Source: Scenedesmus sp. PABB004 (lineage: Eukaryota). Taken from it: DNA of 64,000 nucleotides. The translations under genes were made by a program, and so were the position numbers. The stretch spans positions 434,001 through 498,000 of the forward strand of contig JABVCE010000013.1 of assembly GCA_014905635.1 (NCBI GenBank). Reading direction: 5' to 3'. Below the pieces are notes generated by a model that was not told the DNA's origin, searched no databases, and saw nothing but the letters and a program-made list of their open reading frames with translations. This document shows, piece after piece, positions 1 to 53,505 of this stretch; the stretch's first letter is position 1, and every line of letters begins with the position of its first letter.

Positions 1-3000
1 GCCGCCACGGTGCGGCGCCTGGCCATGTACAAGAAGCGCGCCGTGCGCAACAAGAAGGGCAAGATCCTGCACGAGGTGCGCCCGGGACGGGCCCGGGAGA
101 CGGCGCCGCGCATGCCGGCGGCTGCGCCCGCTGCCCGGCGCGCATGCGCGGCGCGCGGCGCCCCGGCGCGCCGGTCAGAGCTCGGCCGGGGTCCGTACCG
201 TCGCACGCGGCTGGCCGCGCGCTGCGCCGCGCCGCCGGAGCCGCGCGCCGGCCGCAGCCGCCGCGCTCGCCGCTGCTCACCCGCGCCGCGCCGCGCCGCG
301 CCGCGCCGCGCCGCGCCGCGCCGCAGGACCTGCAATCCAAGGACCTCCCCACCACGCGCATCCAGCCCGACCGGCGCTGGTTTGGCAACACGCGCGTGAT
401 CGGGCAGAAGCAGCTGCAGGAGTTTCGCGACGAGATGAGCAGCAAGATCAACGACGCCTACACCGTGCTGCTGCGCGAGAAGAAGCTGCCGCTGCAGCTG
501 CTGGAGGACCCGGAGCGCAAGGTGCGCGGCGGCCGGCGCGCGGCGGCGCACGCGCTGCGCGCGCGCGCGGCGGCGCGGCGCGCCCGCCGCGCCGGCGCGC
601 CCGCCGCGCCGGCGCGCCCACGCGGCCGCGCCCGCGCCCGCGCCGCCGCCGCGCAGGTGGGCGGCAAGGCGGCGCGCGTCGACCTGCTCACGACGCAGCC
701 GTTCGCGGAGACGTTTGGCCCGGGGCGCAAGCGCAAGCGCCCGAAGCTCGCCGCCGAGGGCTACGAGGCGCTCGTCGCGTCGGCGGCGGACAAGGAGGAG
801 CGGTTTGAGACCGCGGCCAACGCCGTCGTGCCGGGCGAGTTTGGGGAGTTCAAGGACGCGGTGAGCGCCGCCCTCCCGGAGCCTTCGGCCGCCCGCGCTG
901 CCGCTGCGCCGCTGCGCTGGAGCGCGCGCACCGGCCGCCGCGCCGCGCTCACGCCCCTCGCGCCGGCATGCGTCCCCAGGCCAAGGACGCGATCTTTGAC
1001 AAGGGCCAGTCCAAGCGCATCTGGGGCGAGCTGTACAAGGTGCTGGACTCGTCCGACGTCGTCATCCAGGTGCGGCACTCGCACAGCAGCGCGGCGGCGG
1101 CGGCGGCGGCGGCGCGGCGCCGCGCCGCGCCGCGCCGCGCCGCGCCGCGCCGCGCCGCGCCGCGCCGCGCGGTGGCCGACGCGCCGCGCGCCGCCTGGCG
1201 TCACAGGTGCTGGACGCGCGCGACCCCGAGGGCACGCGCTGCCGCTTCCTGGAGACGCACATCCGCAAGAACGCGCGGCACAAGCACCTGCTGCTCCTGC
1301 TGAACAAGTGTGACCTGGTGAGCGAGCGAGCGCGCCGGCCGAGAGCTCTCCGCGCGCGCCTGCGCCCGCGTGTGTGCGCGTGTGCCGCCTTGCGCTGTGG
1401 CGGCGCGCGCTGCGGCCAGCCAGCCTCGCCAGCGGGGGGAGGTGGAGAGAGGCGGGGATGAATGACACATTGTCCGTACCATCAGAGCGCCCTCGGGCTG
1501 CTGATGAACAAACGTGGAATCTCGTTAGCCTGAGCCTCTCTCTCTCCCCCCATGCTCGTGCGCCTGGCTGCCTGCCTGCGTGTCTGCGACTGCGTGCGCG
1601 CGCGCGCGCGCGCGGCTGAGGTGATGGCAACACACAACTTAAATATACACCGAGCTCTGCACTGAGCGACACACCAACCCTGATCAGCCGCACGCGGCTG
1701 TGCTGTGTGTGCTGCGCGTGTGCTGTGGGCGTGTGTGCTGCTGTGGGCGCGCGCCTCGCGCGCACCCGCCCGCCGCGCGCGCTCACGCGCCGGCCCGCGT
1801 CCGCGCCCGCGCCCGCAGGTGCCCGCGTGGGTGACCAAGCGCTGGCTGCACACGCTCAGCCGCGAGTACCCCACGCTCGCGTTCCACGCGAGCCTCACCA
1901 ACCCCTTTGGCAAGGGCGCGCTGCTCGGCCTGCTGCGCCAGCTCGCGCGCCTGCGCAGCGACAAGCAGGCCATCAGCGTCGGCTTCATCGGCTACCCCAA
2001 CGTCGGCAAGTCGAGCGTCATCAACGCGCTGCGCACGAAAAAGGCACGGCTCCCACCGCGGCCCCCGCCGCACGGCCGCGCCGCGCCGCACGGCCGCGCC
2101 GCCGCCACCTCCCGCGGCCGCGCGGCCGCGCCGCCGCCGTCCCCCGCGCTCACGCGCCGCGCCCGCGCTCGCGTCGCAGGTGTGCAAGACCGCGCCGGTG
2201 CCGGGCGAGACCAAGGTGTGGCAGTACATCACGCTCATGAAGGTGCGGGCATGTGTGCGGGCATGTGTGCGGGCATGTGCGTGGGCGGTACGACACGTCG
2301 CACGCACGCACGCTCTACGCAGCGGCGGCCCCCGCGCGCGCCCCTCGACCGCCCTCCTCACCCTCCCACGCGCCCACGCGCCCACGCACCCACCCTCCCA
2401 CCCACGCACCCACACCCACGCGCCCACACCCGCCCACCCTCACCCCCCCCCCCCACACACACAGCGCATCTTCCTGATCGACTGCCCCGGCGTCGTCTAC
2501 CACCGCACGAGCGACGACGAGACCGACGCGGTGCTCAAGGGCGTCGTGCGCGTGGAGGGGCTCGAGGACGCGACCGGGCACGTCGCGCGCGTGCTGGAGC
2601 GCGTCAAGTCAGAGTACCTGGTGCGCCGCGCGGCTGGCGGGGCGGCGCCGGGGCGGCGCCGGGGCGGCGGGAGCGGCGCCGGGGCGCGCCGCGCGCGTGT
2701 GTGTGCGCGCGTGTGGGCGTCGCGTGTGCGGCGGCGTGACGTGCGGCGGCGCGACGCGGAGCCTATAGAGCAGGGGTCGGTGATGATGATTCAACATCAT
2801 TATAGTAGATAGAGACATCTGACTCGAGCCGTGAAGATGTTTTGTTGTGGGAATCTCACTGAGCCGCCCCTCTTCCTCTTATCCACCGCGCCGCCGGCGC
2901 CGCCATGCCGACCGTTGTGCTGCCGCGCGCGCGTGTGCGCGCTTTGTGTGTCTGGCTGCGCCCTGCCGGCGGGCGCACCGGCCCGGCGGCCCGCGCCCAC

Positions 3001-3635
3001 GCCGCCCGCCGCCGCCGCCCGCGCCGCCCGCGCCGCGCGCGCGGCGCCGCAGCGCCGCGCGTACCGCATCACGTCGTGGGCGGACCACGAGGACTTTTTG
3101 GAGCAGCTCGCGCGCGCGACCGGCAAGCTGCTCAAGGGCGGCGACCCCGACCTCAACACCGCGGCGCGCATCGTGCTCTACGACTGGCAGCGCGGCAAGA
3201 TCCCCTTTTACACGCTGCCGCCCGGCTACACCGACGCGCCGCCCGGCGCGGACGGCGCGGCGGAGCAGGCACAGGTGCAGCAGCTGCAGGCGCAGCCGCA
3301 GGCGCAGCAGGCGCAGCAGGCGCAGCAGCAGGCGCAGGAGCAGCCGGCCGCGATGTTTGCGGCCGCGGTGACCGACGACGACGCGGCGGCGGAGGCCGGC
3401 GCGCGGCCCGAGGACGCGGCCGCCGCGGCGGCGGCGCTGCGCGCGGCGGCGGCCGCCGCGCTGCGCAAGCAGCGCCACGCGGCCATCCCCACCAAGGAGG
3501 GCTACTACCTGCCCGCGGACGAGCAGGGCCAGCCGGGCGCGGAGGCGTCGGACGACGGCGGCGCGTCGGAGGACGTGCTGAGCGGCAGCAGCGACGACGA
3601 CGGCGGCGACGCGAGCAGCAGCGACGGCGCCGACG

Positions 3636-3672
<37 letters not shown>

Positions 3673-3743
3673 CGGCGCGGCCAGCGGCAGCGGCAGCGGC
3701 AGCGGCAGCGACGGCGAGGCGGGGCCGGGGCCCGGCAGCAGCA

Positions 3744-3778
<35 letters not shown>

Positions 3779-4633
3779 GGCGGCGCGCGCGCCAAGCGGC
3801 GGCGGCGCGCCGCGGCGCGCCGCGGCGGCGGCGGGAGCGGCGGCGCAGCGGCGCCGGCGGCCGCCGCTGGCGGCGCCGACAGCGGCGACGAGAGTGACGG
3901 CTACGGCGCGGCGGGGCTGTCCTGGGAGGCCGTGCTGGCGGCCGTGCAGGTGCGCGCCGGGGCGGGGCTGCCGGGGCGCGCTCGCGTGCGCGTGCGTGGT
4001 GCGCGTGCGTGTGCGTGTGCGTGTGGGTGCTCCCCCCTGCGGCCGGCGCGCCGGCAGGGATGCTCATGTCTCGTTCGTCGGATAGGCGACGTCCCACCAA
4101 GACACCAAAGCCATGCCGACAAGATTTACATCACCACCCATTGTCTGAGCCAACAGCGCGCCGCAGGCGCAGCGGGGGAGAGCGGTTGCGGTTGCGGTTG
4201 CCGTCGTGCCGTCGTGCGCGTGCGCGTGTGCCGCTGCCGCGCGGGGCGCCTGGGGTGATGAATACAGTTTACCTGTTGCCTTCCTAAGGAGCCTCGGCAA
4301 TGATTCCTTTCTACACGAGATTGCTGACCAAACGCCCCGCGCGCTGTACTGTGTCCTGTGCCGTCGCCCCCGGCGTGTGCGCCGCGCGCGCCGCGCGCGC
4401 CGCTGATCGGCCCGCCCGCCGCCCGCCTCGCAGGACGGCGGCGAGGCCGGCGCCGGCGAGCCCGACGACGACGACGCCGCGCCGCAGGCGGACGAGGCGG
4501 CGCCCGCTGCAGCGGCAGCGGCGCCCGCGCCCGCGCCCGCGCGGGCGGCGGCGGCCGGCGCGGTGCCAAGAAGCGCGGCAAGGCCGGCAAGGGCAAGGCC
4601 GGCAAGGGCGGCGGCATGACCACGATGGAGTAG
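1..4633 (+). CDS. NOG2: Nucleolar GTP-binding protein 2 (NOG2/GNL2), 5'-truncated, at least 10 exons
   Basis: Exons 1-75, 327-521, 657-860, 980-1069, 1207-1317, 1819-2043, 2180-2242, 2465-2620, 3053-3949, 4434-end. They give NGP1NT motif [47 protein letters not shown]4 LNKCDL, G1 [10 protein letters not shown]3 DCPG and [10 protein letters not shown]. In-frame stop is 4617-4619; a shifted frame gives a K/G-rich tail ending 4633. Confidence 0.95.
283..323. repeat. (CCGCG)n pentamer microsatellite in intron
   Basis: Tandem CCGCG units just before the acceptor at 326; similar arrays at ~1119-1170 and, on the minus strand, ~31599-31642. Confidence 0.85.
1445..1542 (+). ncRNA. Intronic box C/D snoRNA 1 (dual LSU rRNA guide; U30-like D guide)
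   Basis: Stem GAGAGAGGC 1445-1453 / GCCTCTCTC 1534-1542; C-like GGGATGA 1455-1461; guide TTGTCCGTACCA 1470-1481 (antisense to LSU UGGUACGGACAA) then D' CAGA 1483-1486; C' CTGATGA 1501-1507; guide GGAATCTCGTTA 1516-1527 (antisense to LSU UAACGAGAUUCC); D CTGA 1530-1533. Confidence 0.88.
1612..1691 (+). ncRNA. Intronic box C/D snoRNA 2 (SSU rRNA guide)
   Basis: 8-bp stem GCGGCTGA 1612-1619 / TCAGCCGC 1684-1691; C-like GTGATGG 1621-1627; 15-nt guide ACAACTTAAATATAC 1634-1648 antisense to 18S GUAUAUUUAAGUUGU; D' CCGA 1650-1653; D CTGA 1680-1683. Confidence 0.88.
2773..2870 (+). ncRNA. Intronic box C/D snoRNA 3 (U74/snR64-like plus U79-like dual guide)
   Basis: C GTGATGA 2780-2786; guide ATAGTAGATAGAGACA 2802-2817 (LSU UGUCCCUAUCUACUAU, 1 mismatch) then D' CTGA 2819-2822; C' GTGAAGA 2831-2837; guide GTGGGAATCTC 2847-2857 (LSU GAGAUUCCCAC); D CTGA 2859-2862; GGGG/CCCC ends. 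Confidence 0.92.
4053..4151 (+). ncRNA. Intronic box C/D snoRNA 4 (dual SSU rRNA guide, degenerate C box)
   Basis: C-like GGGATGC 4057-4063; guide GTCTCGTTCGT 4068-4078 (18S ACGAACGAGAC) then D'-like CGGA 4079-4082; guide TCACCACCCAT 4131-4141 (18S AUGGGUGGUGG); D CTGA 4145-4148; outer stem CCTGCGG 4036-4042 / CCGCAGG 4161-4167. Confidence 0.72.
4241..4340 (+). ncRNA. Intronic box C/D snoRNA 5 (snR52/U83-like SSU guide plus LSU guide)
   Basis: Stem GCGGGGCG 4241-4248 / CGCCCCGC 4333-4340; C GTGATGA 4255-4261; guide CCTGTTGCCTTCCT 4272-4285 (18S AGGAAGGCAGCAGG, one G-U) then D'-like AGGA 4287-4290; guide TTCTACACGAGATT 4309-4322 (LSU AAUCUCGUGUAGAA); D CTGA 4324-4327. Confidence 0.9.
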
Positions 4634-4931: not shown

Positions 4932-5861
4932 ATGGCTGCGCGGCTCTCGCTGAGCAAGCGGCTGCTCGTGGGGCTGCGCGTGGCGTTCTGGTGCGATGGT
5001 GGCAGCGCCCTGCCAGACGCCGCGCCGCTGCCGCCCGCAGCGCTGGGCGGCGGCGGGCCCCGCTGTCCCGCTGCCGCGCGCGCGGGCCCGCGCCGCCGCG
5101 CCGGCCGCCCGGCGCAGCCCGGCCTCACGCCCCCGCGCCGGCCGCACCCGCCGCCGCCTCCAGGAGCGAGGAGGCGGGCGAGTTCCGGGACGGCGCGATC
5201 GCCGCGTACGACGAGGCGACAGACGCGTTTGTGCTCGAGCCGCGCGACGGCGCGCCCGGCGCGCGCGCGGCGGTGCAGTTCCACCAGTTCACCGTCGAGG
5301 AGGAGCAGCGCGAGCTGGTGCTCAAGGTCACGCGCTGCCAGGCGGTCGAGCTGCCGGAGCGGTGGCGGCCGCGCGGCAGCGAAACCGACGCGGGCGCGCC
5401 GCCCGGCGGCGGCGATGGCAGCGGGGCGCCTGGTGCGCCAGGCGGCGGCGGCTGGCACGCCGGCGGGCGCGCCGCGCCGCGCCCGCTCTCGCGCGCCGGC
5501 CGCAGGCTGCCCTGCCCGCTGACCGCCCGCGCGCGCGCGCGCGCTGCGCAGACGCGCCACCGGCGGACGCCGTGCTGTCGGCGGAAGTCTCGCGGCAGCT
5601 GAGCGGCCTGGTCGGCCGCGCGTTCTCGCACACGGAGGAGGGCTTTGAGGCCGTGCTGGCCGCGCAGGCGCCGGAGCAGCAGCTGCCCCCGGGCGAGGAG
5701 TCGCTTGAGCAGCTGCTGCCGGGCGCGCAGGCGCCGAAGCAGCAGCTGCCCCCGGGCGAGGAGTCGCTTGAGCAGCTGCTGCCGGGCGCGCAGGCGCCGA
5801 AGCAGCAGCTGCCCCCGGGCGAGGAGTCGCTTGAGCAGCTGCTGCCCGGCGCGCAGGCGCC

Positions 5862-5902
<41 letters not shown>

Positions 5903-16239: not shown

Positions 16240-19200
16240 ATGAGCGCGAGCAGCGGCGGCAAGCGCGCCGTCCTCTGGTTCCGCAAGGTGCGCGCGCGCC
16301 CGCGCGCCGGCGGTGTGGCTCATCCGCCGCGCCCGAGCCGCCAGCGGGGGCGCGGCCCGGCGATCGATCGCGGCGGCGGGCGCGGCCCGACGCGCGCGCG
16401 CCCGGCGCCGCGCTCCGCGCCGGTCGCAGGGCCTGCGCCTGCACGACAACCCGGCGCTGCTGGAGGCGTGCGCGGGCGCGTCGGCGGTGTACCCGGTGTT
16501 CATCATCGACCCCCACTTCCTGACGGCCAGCGCCTACAAGTGCGCGGCGGGCCGCGGGCCGGCGGCGGCGCGCGCGCGGCCGCGAACGTGCCGGCGGCGC
16601 GCGCGGCGCGCGGCGCTCTCTCCTGACCGGCCACGCTCGCACCCTGCGCCGCCAGGGTGGGCGTGAACCGCTACAACTTCCTGCTGGAGAGCCTCGCCGA
16701 CCTCGACGCGAGGCGCGCGCGCGCGGCGCGGGGCGGGGCGGGCGGGCCGCGCGCGCGCGCGCGTGCGCCGCGCCTGTGGGCCGCGCGGCGCCAGCGGCCG
16801 CGGACGCGCCTGCGGGCGCCGCTTGCCCGCCTCGCGCCGCGCCGCGCCGCCAACGGCCCGCCGCCCGCCGCCGCCGCAGCCTGCGCGCCAAGGGCTCGCG
16901 GCTGCTGGTGCTGCGGGGCAAGCCCCTGGAGGTGCTGCCGCGCGTGTTCAAGGTCCGCGCCGCGCCGGCAGAGCGCGGCGCCGCTGCCGCGCCCGCGGCC
17001 CCGGCCGCCCACCCTGCTGCACACTCCACCGCTGCGCCCTCGCAGGACTGGGGCGTGACCCAGCTGTGCTTTGAGGTTGACACCGAGCCCTACGCCAAGC
17101 GCCGCGACGCGGACGTGGCCGCCGCGGCCGCCGCGGCGGGCGTCGCGGTGTCCGCGCACGTCAGCCACACCCTCTATGTGCGCCGTGCGCCGCGCGCCGC
17201 GCGCCGGGCGCCCAGGAGGGGGGTGGGAGGCGCCGCCGCCGCTGCTGCGCCCATTCGATCCTCGCCCGCCCTCGGCGTTGACCGCGCCGCGCCGTGCCGC
17301 GCCCGCGCCCGAGCCCGCGCCCGCGCCGCGCCGCGCCGCGCCCGCGCCGCAGGACACCGACGTCCTGCTGCGCGCGGCGGGGGGCAAGGCGCCGCTGACG
17401 ATGCAGGCCTTCACCAAGCTGGTGGACAAGGCGCGGCGCGGCGGGCAGGGGAGGAGGGGCCGACCCCCGGGGGCCCTGGGGCGCAGGACCGCGCTGGGGG
17501 CGGCGCCCCCGCGCGCCTCCCGCCCGCGCGCCCGCCGACGGCGCTGCCCCCGCCCCGCCGCCGCCGCGCCCGCGCAGGTCGGCGACCCGCCGAAGCCGCT
17601 GCCCGCGCCCGGCGCGGTGCCGCCGCCGGGCCCGCTGGGCGCGTGGGGCGACGGCTCGACCGGCGTGCCCAGCCTGGCGGAGGTTGGGTTCACCGAGGCG
17701 CCGACCACGATCTTTAAGGTGCGGCGCTGCTCGCTGCTGCCAGGGGGCGCTGCTGCCGCGCGGCGCCTGCCGCCCGTGCGTCGTGCATCGTGCGGCGCCG
17801 GCAGGCCCGGACGCCGCGCGGCCCGCCCTCCTAGCCCTGCTGCGCGCCGCCGCGCCCCCCCCCCCCCCTCCCACGCACACTCTCACCCTGGCCACCCACC
17901 CCCACGCTCCCGTGCTGCGCGCGCAGGGCGGCGAGTCGGTCGCGCTGTCGCGCCTGGAGGCGAGCCTCGCGGACGCCAAGTGGGTGTGCGGCTTTGAGAA
18001 GCCGGCGACCGACCCTTCCGCCTTCACGCGCCCCGCGACGACCGTGCTGAGCCCGCACCTCAAGTTTGGCTGCCTCTCGCCGCGCCTCTTCCACGCGCGG
18101 CTGGCCGCCGTCTACAAGGCCGCGCGCGGCGCGCACAGCAAGCCGCCCGTGTCGCTCCGCGGGCAGCTGCTCTGGCGCGAGTTCTTCTACACTGTGAGGG
18201 CGCTGCGCGCTGCACGTGCTGCGCGCGCTGTGCCCCGCGCTGCGCGCGCTGTGCCCTGTGCTGCACGCGCTGTGCCGCCCAGCTCCCGCGCGCTGGCGCC
18301 TGCCTCGCTGCGCCTGCCTCGCCGCGCGCGTGGGGCCGCCCGCGCGGCCCGCCGCCCACGCACGCGCGCGCGCGCGCGCCCGCCCGCCGTCACGCAGGTC
18401 GGCAGCGTGACGCCCCACTTCAACGCCATGGCCGGCAACCCCCTCGCCAAGCAGATCCCCTGGGACACCAACCCCGCGCTGCTCGCGGCGTGGCGCGAGG
18501 GCCGCACCGGTGCGCGCCGCCGCGCCGCCGCGCCGCCGCGCCGCCGCGCCGCCGCGGCGCGCAGCGCGCTCGCTTGCCAGCTCGCTGGCTGCCGCTGGCG
18601 CCGGCGCCAGCGGCGCTCCCCCCCCCCCCACAAACACCCTAAACCCTGCCCCCCCCCCTCCTCCAAACCCTCAAAGGCTACCCCTGGATCGATGCGGCGA
18701 TGCGGCAGCTGGCCGAGTGGGGGTGGATGCACCACCTCGCGCGGCACAGCGTCGCGTGCTTCCTCACGCGCGGCGACCTCTTCCTGCACTGGGAGGCGGG
18801 GCAGGCGGTGTTTGAGGAGCTGCTGCTCGACGCGGTGAGGCGGCGACCGCCGCGCCGCCGCGCGGGCGCGCGCCGAGGCTGTCGCGCGGCGCGGCGCGCG
18901 CGGCGTGCTGCGCGCTGCCAGGCCGCCGCGGGGGCGCGCGCCTCGGCTGCTCCCGCCCCTCGTCCGCCACCTCGCCCCCCTGCCTCACCCACACCCTCCT
19001 CCCCCGCTCGCCTCCGTCACTCACCTCCTTCACACTCACCTCCGTCACACTCACCTCTCCCCGCCGCCTTTTTCACCACCTACACACACACACCCGCCCA
19101 CCCACCCCCCTCCCGACTCCCGCCCAGGACCACTTCCTCAACGCCGCCAACTGGCTCTGGCTCTCCTCCTCTGCCTTCTTCGCCCAGTACTATCGCGTCT

Positions 19201-23641: not shown

Positions 23642-26600
23642 TCACTTGATCTCGCTCTGCGCGAGCTTGTTGACTGCGGCCATCTTGCTCGCGGCGACGC
23701 GGAGCTCGTCGAGGTTCTTCTGGATCTCGCCGCGGTCCTCCGCCGGCGCGGCGGCGACGGCCTTCTCCATCTGCACGATCGTCTGCTGGATGCGCGCGAG
23801 CTCCGCGTCGGCGCCCGGCGCGCCGCCCTCGAGGTCGCCCGCGCCGGCCTTGCCCGTGCTGCCCATGCTCGCGCGCGCGAGCTTGATGCTGTTGCGCACG
23901 AGGTTGAGGTCCTGGCTCACGCGGCGGAGGCCGGGCTCGTTGGAGCGGCGCGCGACGCGCGTGACGCTGTCCAGGGCCTTCTCGACCTTCATCTCAGCCA
24001 GCTTGCCCTGTGAGTGAGTGAGGGAGTGCGCGAGTGAGCGAGTGTGTGAGTGTGAGTGAGTGAGCGTGTGAGCGTGTGTGTGAGTGCGTGCGAGCGCGAG
24101 TGTGGAAAGAGGGTGCGAGCGGCGGCGCGCGCGGCGCCGGCCGAGGCCCCCGCGGGCGCGGCGCGGCGCACCTCGACGGCGCCGGCGCTCTGGCGGGCGA
24201 GCGGGTTCTCGTTGAACGTCTGCGCGCCGCGCACGTTGACCATGAGCGCGGTGTTGATCTGGAAGACGTTGTACTTGCGCAGCAGGATGTAGGTGACCAC
24301 CTTGCACGCGTCCTGGATCAGCCACCACACGACTGGGGCAGGCGCGGGCGGCGGCGGCGGCGCGCGGCGCGGCGGCGGCGTGAGGACGGCCCGCGGCGGG
24401 GGCGGGCGCGCGGCGGGGGCGGGCGTGCGGCAGGGGCGGGCGCTGTGGTGCGGCGGCGCTGCGGTGCGGCGGCGGGGCACTCACGGCAGTAGATCCAGAC
24501 CCAGAGGGGCCAGAGCTTGTAGTTGGTGTCGACGGTGAGGCCCTGGACCATGAGGTGGTCGATCTCGCCGGTCTTCCAGATGCACGCGACGAGCGTGGAG
24601 ATGCCGAGCGAGAAGCAGGCCGCGCCGGCGAGGAAGGGCGAGGGGCGGTCGGACCAGAAGAAGCCGTTGTGCGTGCGCGCGCTGAAGAGGGTCAGGAAGT
24701 CGCTGATGGAGACCTTGAGGTACATCATGGTGATGATCTGTGTATGTACAGATGGATGGCGGGCGGTGGTGGATGGTGGGTGGGTGAGTGACGGTGGCGC
24801 CGTCGGGTCGGGCCGCGGGGCGAGCAAGCGGGGCGCGGCGGCGCGGCGGCGCGAAGGGTGCCGGCGCGGACGGCAGGAGGCGCGGCGCGGAGGGCGGCGG
24901 GCGTGCGCGGCGGGCGGACGGGGGGCGCACCTGGGGGTAGGGGATCTCGGGCAGGCCAAACGCCTTGAACACGCTGCCGGGGTTGTGCGAGTCGAGCGCG
25001 GCCCAGAGGAGCAGCAGGGACGAGAGGCACGCGATCGCGGCGAGCACGGAGGAGATGACCCAGAGCACCTTGAGGTTCCACTTCTCGGGCTGGTGGCTCG
25101 GCACGACGTGGTCGTACGCGACGCTGATGAGCGTGCCGTCGTTGAGCACGGTGATGAGGATGAGCATCAGCACGGGCATCTTGAAAAAGTGGGGGAACTC
25201 GGGGTTGGTCGGGTTGAACTTGGACGGGTGCAGCGCGAAGATCGCGATGAAGAAGAACACCACGAGCTGCAGCGTGCACGCGATACTGGGGCGAGGGGAG
25301 GGGAGGGGAGGGGCGGCGGGCGAGCGTGGGTGCGGGCGGGAGTGGGGGCGTGAGCGGGCGCGGGAGCGCGGGCGGCAGCGCGGGCGGGAGCGACGGCGGG
25401 AGCGACGGCGGGAGCAGCGACGCTGCGAGCTGCTGCCGGCGCTGCCAGCCGCTGCCCCCCCCCCTCCCTCGCGCACCGGTAGTTGATGAAGTTCTTCATG
25501 CGCAGGAAGATGCAGCGGCTGATGCGGATCGCCTCGACGATCACGCTCAGGCCCTCCAGCGTGAGCACCATGTCGGCAGCCGCGCGCGCGGCGTCTGCGG
25601 CGGGGCGGGGCGGGCGCGCCGCGTCGGCGCCGGCGGCGCGCGCGGGCGCGCGCGGCGGCTGCAAAGCGAGAGAGAGAGAGAGAGAGCGTGCGCGGCAGCG
25701 GCGGCCCGGCAGCGCGCGCGCGCCCACGCGCACCGGTCGCGCCGGACACGGCGATGCCGACGTCGGCGCGCTTGAGCGCGGGCGCGTCGTTCACGCCGTC
25801 GCCGGTCATGCCGACCGCAAAGCCCTCCTGGCGCAGCGCCTCGACGATGAGGTACTTGTGCTCCGGGTACACCTGCGCGGCGTGCAGCAGCGGGCGGGCG
25901 GGCGCGGGGCGGGGCGGGCGCAGGGCGGGCGCGGGGCGGGGCGCGTGAGGGTCGGATCAGAGCCTGGCGCGGGCGCGCGCGGGCGGGCGGGGCGCGGCGC
26001 GCGGGCGCGGCGGCGCAGGCGCGGGCGCGGCGCGCGGGCGCAGGCGCGCAGGCGCGCAGGCGCAGCTGCGCGCGCCTGCGCGAAGCCGTCGGCGGCGAGG
26101 ATCATCTTGCCGTACTTCTTGCCCAGGTCCTTGGGGATCTTGCCGTCCGCGTCCATCGTCGGCAGGCCGGCCGCGTCCTGGATGTTGGTGCCCAGGCCCA
26201 GCGTGCGCGCCGTCTCCTTGGCAATCACGCCGTGGTCGCCTGCGGGACGCGCCGCGCGCGCCGGCGGGGTCGGCCGCCGCGCGCCCCGCCGCCGCTGCGC
26301 CGCGCCGCGCCGCTCTCCCTCCGTCCCCGCTCCTCCCTCTCTCCTCCTTCTCCCTCCCTCCGCGCCGGCACGCCGGCGCGCCGCCGCGCCGCCGCCGCCG
26401 CGGCGCAGCCCATCCCCCGCGCACCGGTGATCATCTTGACGTCCACGCCGTACTCCATCGCGCGCTCGATCGTGACCTTGGTGTCGGGGCGGGGCGGGTC
26501 GAGGAAGGTCAGGATGCCGAGCATGGTCCACTTGCCGTCCTCGTTGGTGCGCGCGACCGCGAGCGAGCGGATGCCGCGGCGGCCGAGGTCCATGACCTGC

Positions 26601-29358
26601 GGCCGAGGGAGGTGCGCGCGGGCGCGGCGTCGGCGCGGCGCGCGCGGCGTCGGCGCGGCGCGCGCGGCGTCGGCGGCGGCGGCCACAACAAACCCGGCGC
26701 GCGCGCCGCGCCCGGTCGGCGGCGGCGGCAGCGCGGCGATGCGCGCGGGGCTGCGCCGCGGGCGCTGCTGCGCCGCGCCTTCCAGTTGACGCGCTTGGCG
26801 ACCTCCTCCTGGTCGATCTCGACGAGCTTGAGGATGATGTGCGGCGCGCCCTTGGTCGTCTTGAACGTCTTGCCGTCGGGGCCCTTGAGCGTGCCCTCCG
26901 TGCGCTTGATCGTGGGGTCAAAGGGCATGAAGTCAACCTGCGGCGCAGGGCGCGGGGGGCGGGCAGGGTTTAGGCGGCGCGCGGCGGGGCGGGAGGAAGA
27001 GAAGAGAGCGCTGGGCCGGCGCGGGGCGCGGGGGCGCCGTCGCGCGCCGCGCCCACCCCCGCACGCGCACACTCGCGCGCACACTCGCGCGCCCACACGC
27101 ACACAGCGCCCTCGCGCCCGCACCTGCTCGTAGGCGTCGAGCTCCTTGAGGTCGAGGCCGCTGTTGAGCAGGACGAGCGTGTCGAGCGCGTCGCGCGGCG
27201 GCTCCTTCCACTTGGCCGCGAGCGCCGCCGCCTTGAGCACGTCCTCCTTGGTCACGCCCGGGGTGTAGATGGGGCAGTCGTCCTGCGCGGCCAGCACCGC
27301 GGCGCGGTCAGCGCGCTGCGCCGCCGCGGGGCGGCCGCCCGCGCCCGCGCCCGCGCGCCGCGCCCGCCGCCGGCCGCCCCAGCCTCCAGGCCCCGCCGCC
27401 CCGCCTCCCCGCCTCCCGTCCGCGCCGCGCGACCGCGCCCGCGTGCTGCGCGCGCGCTGCGCGTGCTGTGCGTGCTGTGCGCGCCTGGATGACCATCTTG
27501 TTGAGCGTGAGCGTGCCGGTCTTGTCGGAGCAGAGCATGTTCATGCCGGCCATCTCCTCGATCGACGCCAGCCGCGTCACGATCGCGCCGTGGCCCGACA
27601 GCTGCGCGGCGGCGCACGCGGCGCGCGCGGCGCGCGGGCGGGCGTGAGCAGCGGCGCGCGCGAGCGGCGGCGGCGCGGGCGTGAGCAGCGGCGCGGCGCG
27701 CGCGCGCCGCGCAACGCCCCGCGCGCACCTCGCGCGAGCCGAGCGCGAGCGTGGTGGTGCACACGATCTCGATGGCGATCGGGATGGAGACCACGAGCAC
27801 GACGACGACGAAGGTGAGCGCCTCCTTGAAGTTCTCCTTGCCGTAGCCGAGCAGGTAGCCGAGCATGGTGATGCAGAGCACAAAGGAGATGATGACGAGC
27901 GCCGACACGATCGACATCAGGATCTTCTGCAGGTGCCCGATGCCGCCCGCGGACTGGAGCATCGTCGCGGTCTTGCCGAAAAAGGTGTGCTTGCCCGTGG
28001 ACTGGGGGCGTGCGGTGCGCGGCGCGACGGCGGGGCGGCGCGGGGGTCGGCGCGGGCTGCTGGCGCGGCCGGCGAGGCGGCCGGCCGGGCGCGCGGCGGC
28101 GCGCGGCGGCGCGGGCGGCGCGCGGAGGCGCGGCGGCGCGGGCGCGGGCGGCGCAGCGCGCGGCGCGCACCTCGACGGTGGCCTCGACCTCGCCGCGCAC
28201 GGCGGTGGAGCCCATCTTGCAGGAGTCGCCCTTGTACATCGTCACCGGCAGGCTCTCGCCCGTCAGCGCCGACTGGTCGACCTCGAGCCGGCCGTCGTTG
28301 AGCAGGCAGTCGGCGGGGATGGCCGAGCCGGCGCCGAGCAGCACCAGGTCGCCTGGCGGTGGCGGTGGCGGTGGCGCGGGTGGGCGAGGGCGCGGGCGGG
28401 GCGCGGCGCGCGGGCGGGCGCGGCGCGCGCGTGGGCGCGGGCGGGCGTGCGGCGCGGGGCGCGCCCGGCGCGGCGGCGCACCGGGCACGAGGAGCTTGGC
28501 GTCGATGTTGGCCCACTTGCCGCCGCGCTTGCACGTCGCGGTGGGCTTGAGCGAGGCCTTCAGCGCCGCGACGGCGTCGGCGGCCTTGATCGTCTCGTAC
28601 CTGCGCGGCGGCGGCGCGCGTGGGCGGCGGCGGCGGCGGCGCGCAGGGCGCGGCGCCCGCGCGGGGCGCAGGCGGGCGCGCGGGGCGCGGGGCAGCGCGG
28701 GGCGACGCGGCCGGGGGCGCAGGGCGCGCGGGGCGGGCCGCGGCGTTGGTGCGCTCACCAGCCGAGCGTGGCGTTGATGAACTGGATCGCGACGAGCACG
28801 CCCACGTCGGGCCAGTTCTGCAGCCCGATCTCGATGATGATGGCGATCCAGATGATGACGGGCATGGGGTTGAAGCCCCAGAGCCCGAGCTGCGCGGCGG
28901 CGACGCGCGGCGGGGCGGCGCGGGCGCGATCGCGCGGCGCGCGCGGCCGCGCGCGCCGCGGCGGCCGGCGCCGCTGACGCCCCGATCCCGGCGCCCCGAG
29001 ACGGCCGAGGCGCGCACCATGTGGAGGTAGGTGACCCACTTGGGCGTGGACTTCTCCTCGAGCTCGTTGAAGCCCCAGGTCGCGCGCAGGGCCTCAGCCT
29101 CTGCGGCCGGGATGCGGGGCCCACACGTGAGCGCCCCGCGCGCCCGGGCCGCCCCGCGGCGGCGCATCCGCCGCGCCGCGACCGCGGGCGGACCGTACCC
29201 TCGTCGGTGAGGCCGTGGGAGGGGAAAAAGTCGGGCAGAGGCGGCTTCTCCTCCTTCTTCTTGGCGTGCACGCTCTCCATGTTGCCCTCGCCGCCCTGAT
29301 CGCTCAGCTCAACGTCCTTGGCCACCGGCTCGGCCGCGGCCGCCGCCTCGCCCGCCAT
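23642..29358 (-). CDS. PMA: Plasma-membrane P3A-type H+-ATPase, about 17 exons
   Basis: [39 protein letters not shown], phosphorylation motif [70 protein letters not shown] 29358, stop 23642-23644. Confidence 0.97.
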
Positions 29359-31439
29359 CGCGCGCGCGGGCCGCGAGTGTGGGGATGAGAGAGCCCTAGG
29401 GCTGCGGCGCACAACGCCCGTCGGCGCGGCGCGATCTGGAGGGTGGCGCGGGTCCGCGCGGTCGCGGGGGAGTGGGGAACGCGGCGCGGCCGGGGCAGGC
29501 GGGATGCGGTGCGCCGGCTGCTGCGCCCCGCTGAATGACAGCGCGCGCGTTCGATGCCGCGACCGCCCGTTCCGCCCGCAAACGACCGGCATGCAGATGG
29601 GGCGGGTCCGCGCGCAGCACGGCACGCTCGCACGAGGTCCCACTTTGCTGCTGCGATCGGCGGCGCCGCTCACGGCGGCGGCGGCGGCACCTCGGCGCGC
29701 GGCAGGGCCGGGGCACACACTCTTCCCAGGCGCAGCGCGGCCCTGGAACACACGCGCCGCCGCGGCGCGCACGGCGCCGAGCGGCGGAGCGGCGGTCCTG
29801 ATCAGCTGCGGCGAGCCTGATCGACGGGCGGGCGGGCGCGCGGCGGCAGCGGTCACACACAACAAGGGGCCCGCCGCGTCACTGCAGCTCCACGCCCCCG
29901 CCGCCTCGCCGGCCTGGCGGCGCCTCAACGTCTGCCGCGCGGCCGGCCGCGCCGCCGCTGGCACCAGCGCCCGCGCCAGCCTCTCGCCGGTCCCCCGCCT
30001 GCTGCGCCGCCGCCGCCGCGCCGGTGCCGCGCGGCGGCCGCCGCCTCGCCCGCCATCGCGCGCGCGGGCCGCGAGTGTGGGGATGAGAGAGCCCTAGGGC
30101 TGCGGCGCACAACGCCCGTCGGCGCGGCGCGATCTGGAGGGTGGCGCGGGTCCGCGCGGTCGCGGGGGAGTGGGGGGCGCGGCGCGGCCAGGGCAGGCGG
30201 GATGCGGTGCGCCGGCTGCTGCGCCCCGCTGAATGACAGCGCGCGCGTTCGATGCCGCGACCGCCCGTTCCGCCCGCAAACGACCGGCATGCAGATGGGG
30301 CGGGTCCGCGCGCAGCACGGCACGCTCGCACGAGGTCCCACTTTGCTGCTGCGATCGGCGGCGCCGCTCACGGCGGCGGCGGCGGCACCTCGGCGCGCGG
30401 CAGGGCCGGGGCACACACTCTCCCAGGCGCAGCGCGGCCCTGGAACACGCGCGCCGCCGCGGCGCGCACGGCGCCAAGCGGCGGAGCGGCGGTCCTGATC
30501 AGCTGCGGCGAGCCTGATCGACGGGCGGGCGGGCGCGCGGCGGCAGCGGTCACACACAACAAGGGGCCCGCCGCGTCACTGCAGCTCCACGCCCCCGCCG
30601 CCTCGCCGGCCTGGCGGCGCCTCAACGTCTGCCGCGCGGCCGGCCGCGCCGCCGCTGGCACGAGCGCCCGCGCCAGCCTCTCGCCGGTCCCCCGCCTGCT
30701 GCGCTGCCGCCGCCGCGCCGGCGCCGCGCGGTGGCCGCCGCCTCGCCCGCCATCGCGCGCGCGGGCCGCGAGTGTGGGGATGAGAGAGCCCTAGGGCTGC
30801 GGCGCACAACGCCCGTCGGCGCGGCGCGATCTGGAGGGTGGCGCGGGTCCGCGCGGTCGCGGGGGAGTGGGGGGCGCGGCGCGGCCAGGGCAGGCGGGAT
30901 GCGGTGCGCCGGCTGCTGCGCCCCGCTGAATGACAGCGCGCGCGTTCGATGCCGCGACCGCCCGTTCCACCCGCAAACGACCGGCATGCAGATGGGGCGG
31001 GTCCGCGCGCAGCACGGCACGCTCGCACGAGGTCCCACTTTGCTGCTGCGATCGGCGGCGCCGCTCACGGCGGCGGCGGCGGCACCTCGGCGCGCGGCAG
31101 GGCCGGGGCACACACTCTCCCAGGCGCAGCGCGGCCCTGGAACACGCGCGCCGCCGCGGCGCGCACGGCGCCAAGCGGCGGAGCGGCGGTCCTGATCAGC
31201 TGCGGCGAGCCTGATCGACGGGCGGGCGGGCGCGCGGCGGCAGCGGTCACACACAACAAGGGGCCCGCCGCGTCACTGCAGCTCCACGCCCCCGCCGCCT
31301 CGCCGGCCTGGCGGCGCCTCAACGTCTGCCGCGCGGCCGGCCGCGCCGCCGCTGGCACCAGCGCCCGCGCCAGCCTCTCGCCGGTCCCCCGCCTGCTGCG
31401 CCGCCGCCGCCGCGCCGGCGCCGCGCGGCGGCGGCCGCC
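29336..31439. repeat. Tandem triplication of a ~697-bp unit (PMA first codons, 5' region and 3' end of upstream gene)
   Basis: PMA ATG context recurs at 29358, 30056 and 30753; upstream gene stop recurs at 29879, 30576 and 31273; copies differ by a few SNPs/indels; GCGGCCGCC-like microhomology at junctions. Confidence 0.96.
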
Positions 31440-32137
31440 AGCCGGCCGGCAGCGCGGCGCCGAGCCGCGCCGCGAGCGCCTGCTGCAGCCGCGCCGTGAG
31501 GCTGCGCTCCGCGCGCCCCGGGTCGGCGGCGTCCAGCAGGCCCGCGTAGACCAGGATCGCACTGGTTGCAGGCGGGGGTGGGGCGGGGCGCTCGTGAGGC
31601 GCGGCGCGGCGCGGCGCGGCGCGGCGCGGCGCGGCGCGGCGCGTCTCAGGGCACACGAGGCCGGCGCGGCTGGCGCGGCGGCGCGCAGCGCGGGGCACCT
31701 GCGCAGCCAGAACGCGAGCAGGAGCTGCGCCATGCGGAAGAGCGTGAAGAGGCCGAGCGAGAAGCCGCCCGTGGTGGAGAGCGCGGTCGTGGAGAGCACG
31801 GTGACGACGCAGTAGAGCGACAGCACCGCCGTGCGCGCCTGCAGCGCGCCTGCGCGCGCGCGAGCGGGGCGCGGGGCGTGGGGCGTGGGGCGTGGGGCGT
31901 GGGGCGTGGGGCGTGGGGCGTGGGGCGTGACGGGCGCGGCGCCGCGCCGGCGGCGAGCGGGGCCAGGGGCGCGCGCACCCGTGGCGCCGAGCACGTCGAT
32001 CGTGAGGCTGAAGACCACGTCTTCCAGGCGCAACGACCGCGGGTCGAGCCACCAGCTCAGCGGGATCATGCGCCCCGCGCTGCCGCCGCCGCTGCCGTCC
32101 GACAGCGCCCACGGGCTCGCCGCGCCGGGCGGCGGCG

Positions 32138-34617: not shown

Positions 34618-34682
34618 CCGGCGCGCCATCGTGGCGCGTGCAGGCGTCGTCGTCGCCTGCACGCGCCACGATGGCGCGCCGG
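34618..34682. repeat. Perfect 29-bp inverted repeat with 7-nt loop
   Basis: CCGGCGCGCCATCGTGGCGCGTGCAGGCG 34618-34646 / loop TCGTCGT / CGCCTGCACGCGCCACGATGGCGCGCCGG 34654-34682. Confidence 0.95.
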
Positions 34683-35383: not shown

Positions 35384-36783
35384 ATGACCACCAAGTTCGG
35401 CGTGTTCGGGGAGGCGCCCGGCCTGGGCCAGGGCGACCCCTACATCGACACGGGTGCGCGCGGGTGCGGGCGCTGGGCGCGGCGCGGCCAGCCGCCGGCG
35501 GCGCGCGGCGCGCGCGCCCAGCTCGCCGCCCCCCCCCCCCAGTTAAGCCCGACCCGCGGGACGCGGGGCTCAACTTCAAGGTCCCCGGGCCCAAGAGCGG
35601 GCGGGGCGCGGCGTTTGGGCCGCTGCGGCCGCTGGCCGAGGGCGAGCGCTACGTCGAGCCGCTGCGCGCCGCGCTCGCCGCGCGCAACGCCGCGCGCAAG
35701 GCCAACGTGTCGGGTGCGCGCCGGCGCACACGCGCGCGCCCGCGGCGGCCCCCGCCGCCCGGCCGTCGGCCGAGCGCCGCCCGCCCGCCCACCTGAACGC
35801 GTGGCCGCGCAGACAAGCCCTGGAAGGCGGCCAGCCCCATGGCGGTCAGCGCGTGCCCCGGCGACTTCTATGGCACGCTCGGCGGCGCCGTGCCGCACGT
35901 GCCGGCCGCGCCGGCGGTCGCCAAGAAAAAGGGCGAGGTCGCGGGGGCTGGGCGCAACATCGTGACCGGCCCCGCCAAGCGGGTGCGGCGGCGCTCGCGC
36001 GCGCGGCGGCTGCGGCCCGCCAGCAGCTGCTGGCGGGCCGCCTGGCGCGGCTGCAGCCGCGTCAGGCCTGCGCCGCCCGCCCGTGCGCGCGCAGGGCGGC
36101 TTTGGGTTCAACAAGACCACGCTCAGCGAGCGCCAGGGCGCGCTGGGCGTGGCGGGCGAGTACGAATACATCTCAGACCCCGTCCACGCCGCGACGCGCC
36201 AGCGCGCCGCCGACGCGCCGGCGGCCGCGCCATTCCGGCCGGCCAACCCGCCGCGCCGCGGCGGGCCCGGCACCGTCGCGCGGCACCTCGGCGGCCGGCC
36301 GGCCGGCGCGGTCGGCGAGTTTGCGTGGCAGCCGCGCCCCGAGGCGCCGCCGTCGCGGCCGGGCGGCGCCGCCAGCGGCGCCGCGGCGGCGGCGGCGCAG
36401 CCAGCGGCGGGCGCGGCGTTCCGGCCGGTGTCGCTGCCGCACAAGGGCCCCCTGGCCACGTTCAACAGGTTCCCTGGTGAGCCGGGCACGCGCGTGGGCG
36501 GGGCGGGAGCTGCAGCTCCGCCTTGGCTGAGCGCGGCGCCTGGCTGCCGAGCGCGGCTCGCCCGTCGCCTGGCGACACAGCCCCCCTGCCCTGACACTGC
36601 CGCCTGCCCCTCTCACCGCGCGCAGAGTATCTGCACGACCCGGAGGCGGCCAAGGCCGAGGCGCGGGCGGCCGCGCGCGCGCGGGAGCGTGAGGCGCTCG
36701 CGGGCCGCGCCGGCGGCGCGTGGCGGCCGGGCGGGCAGGTCAAGAGCGATGCGACGCGCAGCATCATCGCGATGAACATTTGA
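35384..36783 (+). CDS. CFAP96: Cilia/flagella-associated protein, CFAP96 (C4orf47/DUF4586)-like, 5 exons
   Basis: FGVFGEAPGLGQGDPYID, LNFKVPGPKSG, LAEGERYVEP, GDFYGTL, RNIVTGPAKR|GGFGFNKTTLS, EYEYISDP, TFNRFP|EYLHDP, ATRSIIAMNI*. Confidence 0.78.
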
Positions 36784-36991
36784 ATGTTCAAACGTGAACA
36801 CATGAGCATGCGGCGCAGCACCGGCAGGCGCCGGCTCGGCCACGGCGCGGCGCGGGGAGGCGGCCGGCCGGTCGGGGCGGGGAACGGCGGTTGCCTGAGC
36901 AGCCCCGCGCGCGCTGCTGAACTCCTCTGGTCAGGGCGCGGCGCCGCCCGCCGCTCTCCTCGTGCGCAGCCTCGTCGCGCCCGCCTCGAGC

Positions 36992-52879: not shown

Positions 52880-53505
52880 TTTCCCGCGCAGCGGCCGGCC
52901 GACCCGCAGGCGCGGTGGCGCGGTGACACGCTGGTCCCAGGAGGGAGCCGGGCCTGTTTGCCGCCTCGTGCAGCGGCCTGCCGGACCGTGCGACCCCCAG
53001 GCGGCGCGGCGCGGGCGGGCGGCGGCGGTCTGCGCTGCTGTCGGCGCTGCTGCGGCGCGCTCGCTCTCCCCTCGCCCAGAATCAGTTGTTATCAGGTCGT
53101 GCGCACGCCTGGAGGCCCACAAAACCATGGCGCTGTGCAGGCGGCGCGCCCCGCAGAACCGCCGCCGCTCGCGCTGGCGTGCCGGCGACGCCCGGTGACC
53201 ATGGCTCTGGCCAGAGCGGCGCCGCCACGGCGTGCCCCGGAGCGGTGATGATGGTGCAGCAGCAGTGAATGAAATCAACGCAGCAACAGAGTAGTCACGT
53301 CAAAGCAATAGGGGGGCACGCACCGCTGCGCGCGAGTGGCCGCCGCCCGCCAGCCAAGCCCCGGCCCGCCCGGTAAACCCCGCGTGCCCGCTTGGTCAGT
53401 GCAGCCCACAGCCATTCGTTGAGGCCGTCTCCCGTGCGCCCACGCTGCATACTACATTGAACGGTTGTCCAACCCTCGCGGCCGCCGCGGCCGACGCCGC
53501 GCAGC

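Follow-up and report, generated by a model that had tools for sequence, protein, structure and literature searches.

Candidate small nucleolar RNAs of the box C/D type in introns of the ribosome-biogenesis GTPase gene NOG2 of Scenedesmus sp. PABB004

The first gene in a 64,000-nucleotide (nt) stretch of Scenedesmus sp. PABB004 DNA (GenBank assembly GCA_014905635.1, contig JABVCE010000013.1, positions 434,001 to 498,000 of the forward strand; the whole stretch is called the window below, and positions are counted from its first letter) belongs to the NOG2/GNL2 family of GTPases, and its introns raise the question of what the AT-richer islands within them encode in a window with a GC content of 78.9%. 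A sequence-only reading of the window had proposed that three of these introns (1318-1818, 2621-3052 and 3950-4433) carry five small nucleolar RNAs (snoRNAs) of the box C/D class, two introns holding two units each and one holding a single unit. That proposal is borne out by C boxes, CUGA D boxes and closing stems, and the distribution of the units among the introns is as it had been described. On the strength of the sequence analysis set out here, the five units, termed sno1 to sno5, are most probably (with a probability of about 0.88) genuine C/D methylation-guide snoRNAs that reside in NOG2 introns.

The islands themselves provide the first line of evidence. With 60-nt segments of GC at or below 0.55 as the criterion, 26 islands were found in the window, the first five of which (1453-1561, 1606-1696, 2745-2893, 4066-4166 and 4244-4360) are the five snoRNA candidates, while the next is met only at 19166, in agreement with the AT-richer islands that had been noticed in the NOG2 introns. 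The 21 further islands (19166-53329, for example 24677-24783, 36731-36832 and 53233-53329) gave no C/D-motif or Rfam match, in searches that did not extend to H/ACA motifs or exon content. The entire window was also scanned on both strands for C/D motifs. To qualify, a C box could depart from the consensus at no more than one position, had to be followed 45-140 nt downstream by a CUGA, and needed a neighbouring stem of 4 base pairs (bp) or longer. Seven matches were returned; four of them fall at three loci, which are sno1, sno2 and sno3, and their stems measure 10, 8 and 6/4 bp. The three matches elsewhere in the window have stems of 4-5 bp and a GC content of 0.68-0.87, and none of the three has a box-adjacent match to ribosomal RNA (rRNA), whereas each of the five islands has at least one. 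The strict scan missed sno4, whose C box differs from the consensus at two positions, and sno5, whose external stem is offset from its boxes, though an inverted-repeat search found sno4 bracketed by 8 nt at 100% complementarity and sno5 by 16 nt at 88%.

All five units lie on the strand of the host gene (+) and have CUGA as their D box. Compared with the RUGAUGA consensus, the C box is perfect in sno3 and sno5 (both GUGAUGA), has one mismatch in sno1 (GGGAUGA) and sno2 (GUGAUGG), and two in sno4 (GGGAUGC). The terminal stems adjoin the boxes in sno1 to sno3 (10, 8 and 6 bp) and stand a few nucleotides outside them in sno4 (8 bp) and sno5 (11-16 bp), and the closing stems are present in both the minimum free energy and the centroid folds of every unit. 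Fold z-scores for sno1 to sno5 are -1.9, -4.12, -1.6, -1.5 and -3.70, that of sno2 being the most significant, with none of 200 shuffled sequences as stable. The internal boxes are more variable: D' is CUGA in sno3 and of the form NNGA in the others (CAGA, CCGA, CGGA and AGGA), and while sno1, sno3 and sno5 have a good C' box, that of sno2 and sno4 is poor.

A further line of evidence comes from where the guides fall on rRNA. For each guide, counting five positions upstream from box D, or from the nearest NNGA D'-like box, gave the position whose pairing partner in rRNA was taken as the target (the D+5 rule). The reference ribosomal DNA (rDNA) was foreign, consisting of loci L005-L071, which were found in a metagenome scan and taken from public contigs, with the complete unit L060 as the main reference. 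The design was blind, in that the D+5 targets were fixed on L060 before the table of 2'-O-methylated nucleotides (Nm) mapped by RiboMeth-seq in Arabidopsis was consulted (Wu et al., 2021, PMC8053127), and the register between L060 and Arabidopsis was checked letter by letter in Supplementary Table S4 of that paper. Statements about Arabidopsis sites and snoRNAs made here refer to the available portions of this source. Seven of the ten guide positions fall exactly on an Arabidopsis Nm, namely U2114, A2322, A2327, C2338 and C2683 of 25S rRNA and U1266 and A1330 of 18S rRNA, with MethScores of about 0.94-0.99 at these sites in the rows available (PMC8053127). Among the other three, one position is 2 nt off a known site, one is a 13-bp match without a known site, and one guide has no rRNA match. 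The sequence-only reading had put the number of rRNA methylation guides at about nine, which proves slightly generous: seven are solid, two are uncertain and one is without an rRNA target. Its estimate of 11-16 nt for the antisense elements holds across the units.

Arabidopsis rRNA has a length of roughly 5,300 nt. With 111 Nm mapped in it (PMC8053127), a random position would lie on an Nm about 2% of the time, so that seven coincidences in ten would be expected by chance with a probability of the order of 1e-10. The grouping of the guides also follows a pattern, as the A2327 and C2338 guides are carried by one RNA (sno3), with sites 11 nt apart, and the U1266 and A1330 guides by another (sno4), with sites 64 nt apart. 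The guide strings themselves, when searched in the Arabidopsis supplement (PMC8053127), had no occurrences.

Two other sources of reference sequence were considered. The rDNA loci L001-L004 are filed under bacterial genomes or metagenome-assembled genomes (MAGs; Saccharibacteria, Phycisphaerales and Pilosibacter) and are contaminating eukaryotic rDNA; they were rejected as a target reference since they are too divergent at several sites. A scan of viral contigs for rDNA found none.

The first intron of interest carries sno1 (1446..1542, +), which is closed by the stem 1446-1454/1534-1542 and contains the C box at 1455-1461, the D' box CAGA at 1483-1486, a C' box CUGAUGA at 1501-1507 and the D box at 1530-1533. 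Its D' guide (1470-1481) forms 12 Watson-Crick (WC) pairs and is directed to 25S U2114, and its D guide (1516-1528) forms 12 WC pairs and one GU pair and is directed to 25S A2322. This unit is set within a 42-nt imperfect inverted repeat (1412-1453/1534-1575, 71% complementary) that reaches far beyond the usual terminal stem, and the weak Rfam alignment of a microRNA precursor at sno1 is spurious, being due to this long flanking repeat. A spacer of 69 nt (1543-1611), whose fold is not unusual (z -1.24), separates it from sno2 (1607..1696, +), a unit with the stem 1607-1619/1684-1696 (core 1612-1619/1684-1691), the C box at 1621-1627, the D box at 1680-1683, a putative D' box CCGA at 1650-1653 and a putative C' box UGAGCGA at 1663-1669. 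The sno2 guide (1634-1648) is the longest of the guides, with 15 contiguous WC pairs to 18S GUAUAUUUAAGUUGU, and a short 3' guide lies at 1666-1679. Two further matches of sno2 were set aside: an exact 12-mer of the 3' guide in locus L041, on the sense strand and upstream of 18S, is not significant, with about 0.1 such matches expected by chance, and a second guide upstream of CTGA 1662, which pairs with 25S over 14 bp with one mismatch and one GU pair, was treated as chance.

The second intron contains sno3 alone (2772..2871, +), with the stem 2772-2777/2866-2871, the C box GUGAUGA at 2780-2786 (or AUGAUGA at 2783-2789), the D' box at 2819-2822, a C' box GUGAAGA at 2831-2837 and the D box at 2859-2862. 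Its D' guide (2802-2817) forms 4+11 WC pairs and is directed to 25S C2338, and its D guide (2847-2858) forms 11-12 WC pairs and is directed to 25S A2327.

In the third intron, sno4 (4044..4163, +) has an external stem (4044-4051/4156-4163) and an inner GGC/GCC stem (4053-4055/4149-4151), the C box at 4057-4063, the D' box CGGA at 4079-4082, a putative C' box AUGCCGA at 4113-4119 and the D box at 4145-4148. Its D' guide (4068-4078) pairs over 11 WC bp and is directed to 18S A1330, and its D guide (4130-4143) is directed to 18S U1266. The spacer that follows, at about 4152-4240 (about 89 nt), again has no unusual fold (z +1.25). The last unit, sno5 (4238..4343, +), has the external stem 4238-4253/4328-4343, the C box at 4255-4261, a C' box AUGAUUC at 4300-4306 and the D box at 4324-4327; its D' box is ambiguous (AGGA at 4287-4290 or CUAA at 4284-4287). 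The D guide (4309-4322) is directed to 25S C2683 and is the perfect complement, over 14 of 14 WC pairs, of the natural rDNA variant L039; reference loci differ there, and on L060 the pairing is 12 WC bp with one GU pair and one mismatch. The 5' element (4272-4284) forms 12 WC pairs and one GU pair with 18S GGAAGGCAGCAGG. The same region, extended to 4290 (UGUUGCCUUCCU, 4272-4290), equals the word upstream of the D box in the Rfam model of human U83B, in an alignment that is not significant (E 5.3); SNORD83B has been mentioned as acting on mRNAs, in the available part of PMC5389715.

A number of observations weigh against the reading of the five units as guide snoRNAs and were set against the evidence above. 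The Rfam search that had been suggested as a check gave no match at gathering score in the 64-kb window, and the Rfam thresholds thus miss all five units; what it did give were sub-threshold alignments, of snoR117 (RF01423) on sno1 (31.6 bits against a gathering score of 42; E 4e-4 for the region and 0.008 for the whole window) and of snoZ43 (RF00330) on sno4 (30.6 bits against 43; E 1.5e-3 and 0.028, respectively). These two are the only snoRNA alignments with E at or below 0.1 in the window, and the guide cores are conserved in them, so that by sequence sno1 and sno4 have guides and sites like those of snoR117 and Z43 and are not members by the Rfam threshold. Weaker alignments were obtained on sno3 (sn2429, E 0.82; Z157, E 2.9), and narrow searches of sno2 and sno5 gave only alignments with E above 1 (SNORD2, sR60, U83B and sR7). 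The rDNA against which every target was judged, moreover, was foreign, coming from metagenomes and from contaminants of MAGs, and was not the organism's own.

Complementarity to rRNA, taken alone, is also common in this window. Exact antisense rRNA words of at least 11 nt occur about once per kb per strand, and a lax rRNA match beside a CTGA on the plus strand is at background, being found in 18 of 120 cases with real rRNA and in 17 of 120 with reversed rRNA. Both measures were dropped as a stand-alone test for this reason. The 18S words that pair with the 5' elements of sno2 and sno5 are present in 67 of 68 loci and in all 68, respectively, but this likewise constitutes no evidence, because the pattern used for the rDNA scan contained them. 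With short GC-rich antisense matches so frequent and the Rfam thresholds unmet, the islands could be ascribed to chance C/D-like motifs and rRNA-like words in introns that give rise to no RNA product. Since lax complementarity does not exceed chance, what makes the five units significant is that boxes, stems and exact coincidence with Nm occur together, and it is here that the chance explanation fails to account for the data: seven of the targets that the D+5 rule fixed blind are exactly Arabidopsis Nm, guides are paired in the manner of SnoR44 and SnoR32, every unit has its closing stem, and the islands are the sole AT-richer patches in 19 kb. An origin of the islands by chance is accordingly considered extremely improbable.

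The remaining difficulties concern single units, and suggest that some of these might be decaying or retargeted, sno2 and the 5' half of sno5 having lost an ancestral methylation or guiding RNAs other than rRNA. For sno2, the D+5 position counted from CCGA, its sole NNGA box, corresponds to U584 of Arabidopsis, which is 2 nt away from the mapped Nm U582 of SnoR77Y; its C' and D' boxes are poor, its orphan 3' guide matches no stretch of rRNA as long as 10 nt in the reference rDNA, and the match upstream of CTGA 1662 lies off known Nm, C1447 of Arabidopsis being 3 nt away. The 5' element of sno5 is without a clear D' box, no NNGA box there gives a known site, and no Nm stands at the matched 18S site in the available part of the Arabidopsis table. 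In sno3, the D' guide has an A·C mismatch at position 6, beside the target, where 12 of 12 reference loci have a C, and the C box of sno4 is degenerate. Conversely, the guide of sno2 is perfectly complementary over 15 bp and belongs to the most significant fold of the set, degeneracy of D' and C' boxes is frequent in genuine snoRNAs, and lineage-specific Nm are common, 36 of the 111 Arabidopsis sites being shared with yeast and human (PMC8053127, available portions). Decay or retargeting of some units is therefore a possible, if rather unlikely, qualification.

The host gene can be identified with some precision. It lies on the plus strand at 1..4632; the start of the window truncates it at the 5' end, and at least its 3' two-thirds are inside, running from the first base. 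Ten exons (1-75, 327-521, 657-860, 980-1069, 1207-1317, 1819-2043, 2180-2242, 2465-2620, 3053-3949 and 4434 to about 4632) join into a single open frame across eight GT-AG introns and one GC-AG intron. Their translations contain the Pfam domains NGP1NT (E 3.7e-27 and 1.2e-8) and MMR_HSR1 and match Nog2/GNL2 chains in the PDB, where exons on either side of an intron cover contiguous residue ranges of human GNL2 (6lss_1): 223-259 and 260-334, and 356-406 and 408-466. These domains and the contiguity of the residue ranges across introns identify the host as NOG2/GNL2, as the sequence-only reading had named it.

The three introns that carry the units have GT..AG ends and are indeed longer than any of the other six NOG2 introns in the window. 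That at 1318-1818 (+, 501 nt), with sno1 and sno2, falls at the junction of human GNL2 residues 259 and 260, and that at 2621-3052 (+, 432 nt), with sno3 only, at the junction of residues 406 and 408; homology to GNL2 confirms both, at the level of sequence, at exactly the coordinates first proposed. The third, at 3950-4433 (+, 484 nt), with sno4 and sno5, is predicted from splice consensus and reading frame. GC content is 0.71-0.76 in these three introns; five of the other six are at 0.84-0.96, and the sixth, 2243-2464, is at 0.76.

The location of intron 3950-4433 within the non-conserved acidic tail of NOG2, beyond the reach of homology support, is the last of the points that tell against the overall interpretation. 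Together with the uncertain frame of the final exon, it would allow sno4 and sno5 to be non-intronic, with 3950-4433 either left unspliced, as a read-through tail or 3' untranslated region, or independently transcribed. The donor (CAG/GTGCGC) and acceptor (CGCAG/G) of this intron nevertheless match those of the other eight and the frame continues across it, whereas read-through of the unspliced sequence would pass through sno4 as coding sequence and stop at 4256, inside the C box of sno5; the same design, besides, is found in the two NOG2 introns that homology confirms. A non-intronic origin of sno4 and sno5 is thus held to be improbable. By sequence, the homology-confirmed intron 1318-1818 and the predicted intron 3950-4433 are intronic clusters of the plant and green-alga type, with two units each on the host strand.

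Some features of the gene itself were also recorded. The intron at 2044-2179 has a GC donor (AAG/GCACGG...CGCAG/G), the other eight starting with GT, and all ten exons in the window start in codon phase 0. The short introns, with stretches such as 283-323 and 1120-1168, are 84-96% GC and consist largely of (CGCCG)n-like pentanucleotide runs. The last exon, 4434-4632, is of low complexity, rich in Ala, Pro and Arg, with a TGA stop near 4617, and its frame is ambiguous near 4560-4632; an alternative frame has a Lys/Gly-rich end with a TAG stop at 4630-4632. Either an assembly frameshift or a small intron that went unrecognised may underlie this conflict.

If the five units are guide snoRNAs, their biogenesis and action would be expected to take the following course. 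The NOG2 pre-mRNA would be transcribed by RNA polymerase II and the five snoRNAs co-transcribed with it. With boxes C and D brought into proximity by the flanking stem, the two would form a kink-turn to which core C/D proteins bind, and after splicing and debranching exonucleases would trim the intron to the protected particle. Where there are two units per intron, the spacer would be cut, or trimming of both units would start at a break that separates them. Freeing both would require each spacer to be cut, and endonucleolytic separation of paired units is a reasonable deduction from the plant and algal clusters that have been described (PMC7671301). The mature RNA would then pair its 11-16-nt element with pre-rRNA, and fibrillarin would methylate the ribose opposite the fifth position upstream of D or D'. 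The predicted sites are 25S U2114 and A2322 for sno1, 25S A2327 and C2338 for sno3, 18S U1266 and A1330 for sno4 and 25S C2683 for sno5, with sno2 predicted to act in the U582 region of 18S. Expression of the five units, their processing route and the rRNA methylation that they direct in this organism are what we infer from these features.

Among sequencing runs, only four, all of them freshwater metagenomes from three studies and none of them RNA, were listed as sharing words with the window (5-8%), and at 80% likeness the matches are mostly GC-repeat noise. Metagenome contigs cover 151 nt at each of 4108-4258 and 4286-4436 with no differences, and 267 nt over 1444-1702 with seven differences and nine gap letters. 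These matches say nothing about expression or conservation.

Fungi, too, have a snoRNA in a NOG2 intron (the H/ACA snR191), and five of the seven secure targets here (U2114, A2322, A2327, C2338 and C2683) lie in 25S rRNA, the RNA of the subunit that Nog2 matures. In a broader hypothesis, NOG2 may be a recurrent and possibly ancient host whose passengers are functionally tied to it. The sno5 5' element and the sno2 3' guide, for which no methylation site is known, could in that hypothesis serve a lineage-specific modification or make non-methylating contacts in rRNA folding, and the nucleotide methylated by sno2 may lie 2 nt away from U582, the conserved site. Taken as a whole, this hypothesis is speculative and considered unlikely.

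The rest of the window contributes further side observations. A 63-nt tandem repeat of 3.5 copies with 96% matches, in frame-like coding sequence of the next downstream gene, is located at 5654-5872, and at 29333-31447 a unit of about 697 bp is repeated in tandem, its three copies being 98-99% identical. The best non-snoRNA Rfam alignment is that of mir-4854 at 34624-34675 (-), which is GC-rich, reaches 36.4 bits where the gathering score is 100 (E 0.005) and is probably spurious.

The significance of the locus is fourfold. Five unannotated RNA genes would be added at a place where annotation based on open reading frames (ORFs) sees nothing but intron; for at least seven of the rRNA methylation sites on the Arabidopsis map, a very GC-rich genome would have matching guide RNAs; and the lineages in which NOG2 serves as a snoRNA host would be extended. 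Moreover, since complementarity to rRNA constrains their sequence, the guide RNAs are visible as AT-richer islands against the GC-rich background, and such islands may offer a practical route to snoRNAs in GC-rich genomes.

Comparison with Arabidopsis places the candidates among known plant families, namely SnoR117, U30, SnoR44, SnoR32/Z43 and SnoR148, which fits the green-lineage setting that had been suggested for them. Mapped Nm are reported for SnoR117, U30, SnoR44 (human U79), SnoR32 (rice Z43), SnoR148 and SnoR77Y (Wu et al., 2021, PMC8053127), and the site assignments are the same as here, with U2114 guided by SnoR117, A2322 by U30, A2327 and C2338 by SnoR44, U1266 and A1330 by SnoR32/Z43 and C2683 by SnoR148. 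The pairing of two guides in one RNA, 11 nt apart in target for SnoR44 and 64 nt for SnoR32/Z43, is shared as well. Outside the guides and boxes, however, the sequences have diverged; sno1 joins in a single RNA the guides for which Arabidopsis uses the separate snoRNAs SnoR117 and U30, and the D+5 site of sno2 is 2 nt off that of SnoR77Y.

The arrangement itself is ordinary and implies no new mechanism: plants, Chlamydomonas and Ostreococcus are established examples of intronic snoRNAs, including cases of several in one intron. Intronic snoRNA gene clusters in Chlamydomonas reinhardtii are reportedly the subject, going by its title, of a 2008 article by Chen and colleagues in Genetics. In Ostreococcus tauri, according to the available part of the published account, 72 snoRNAs are intronic, two clusters lie within introns, and a single host may carry snoRNAs in successive introns, with ribosome biogenesis genes making up 33% of the hosts (PMC7671301). 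The Scenedesmus units resemble this system in occupying the introns of a protein-coding, ribosome-biogenesis host with several units per intron; NOG2 or GTPase hosts had no occurrences in the O. tauri supplement. A literature search on snoRNAs in NOG2 introns gave no algal or plant report among the matches listed, judged by their titles and the openings of their abstracts, and the set of host and passengers found here may be undescribed.

The closest parallel for the host comes from fungi, in which a NOG2 intron harbours the H/ACA snoRNA snR191. According to the available portions of the sources, 72% of fungal species have kept this intron, and the snoRNA is apparently the reason (PMC9351541, PMC8476143). 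The two systems have in common a host of the NOG2 family and a hosted guide RNA that modifies, or here is predicted to modify, the rRNA of the large subunit. They differ in the number and class of the passengers, since a single H/ACA pseudouridylation guide occupies one intron in fungi, whereas in Scenedesmus sp. PABB004 five candidate C/D guides are distributed over three.

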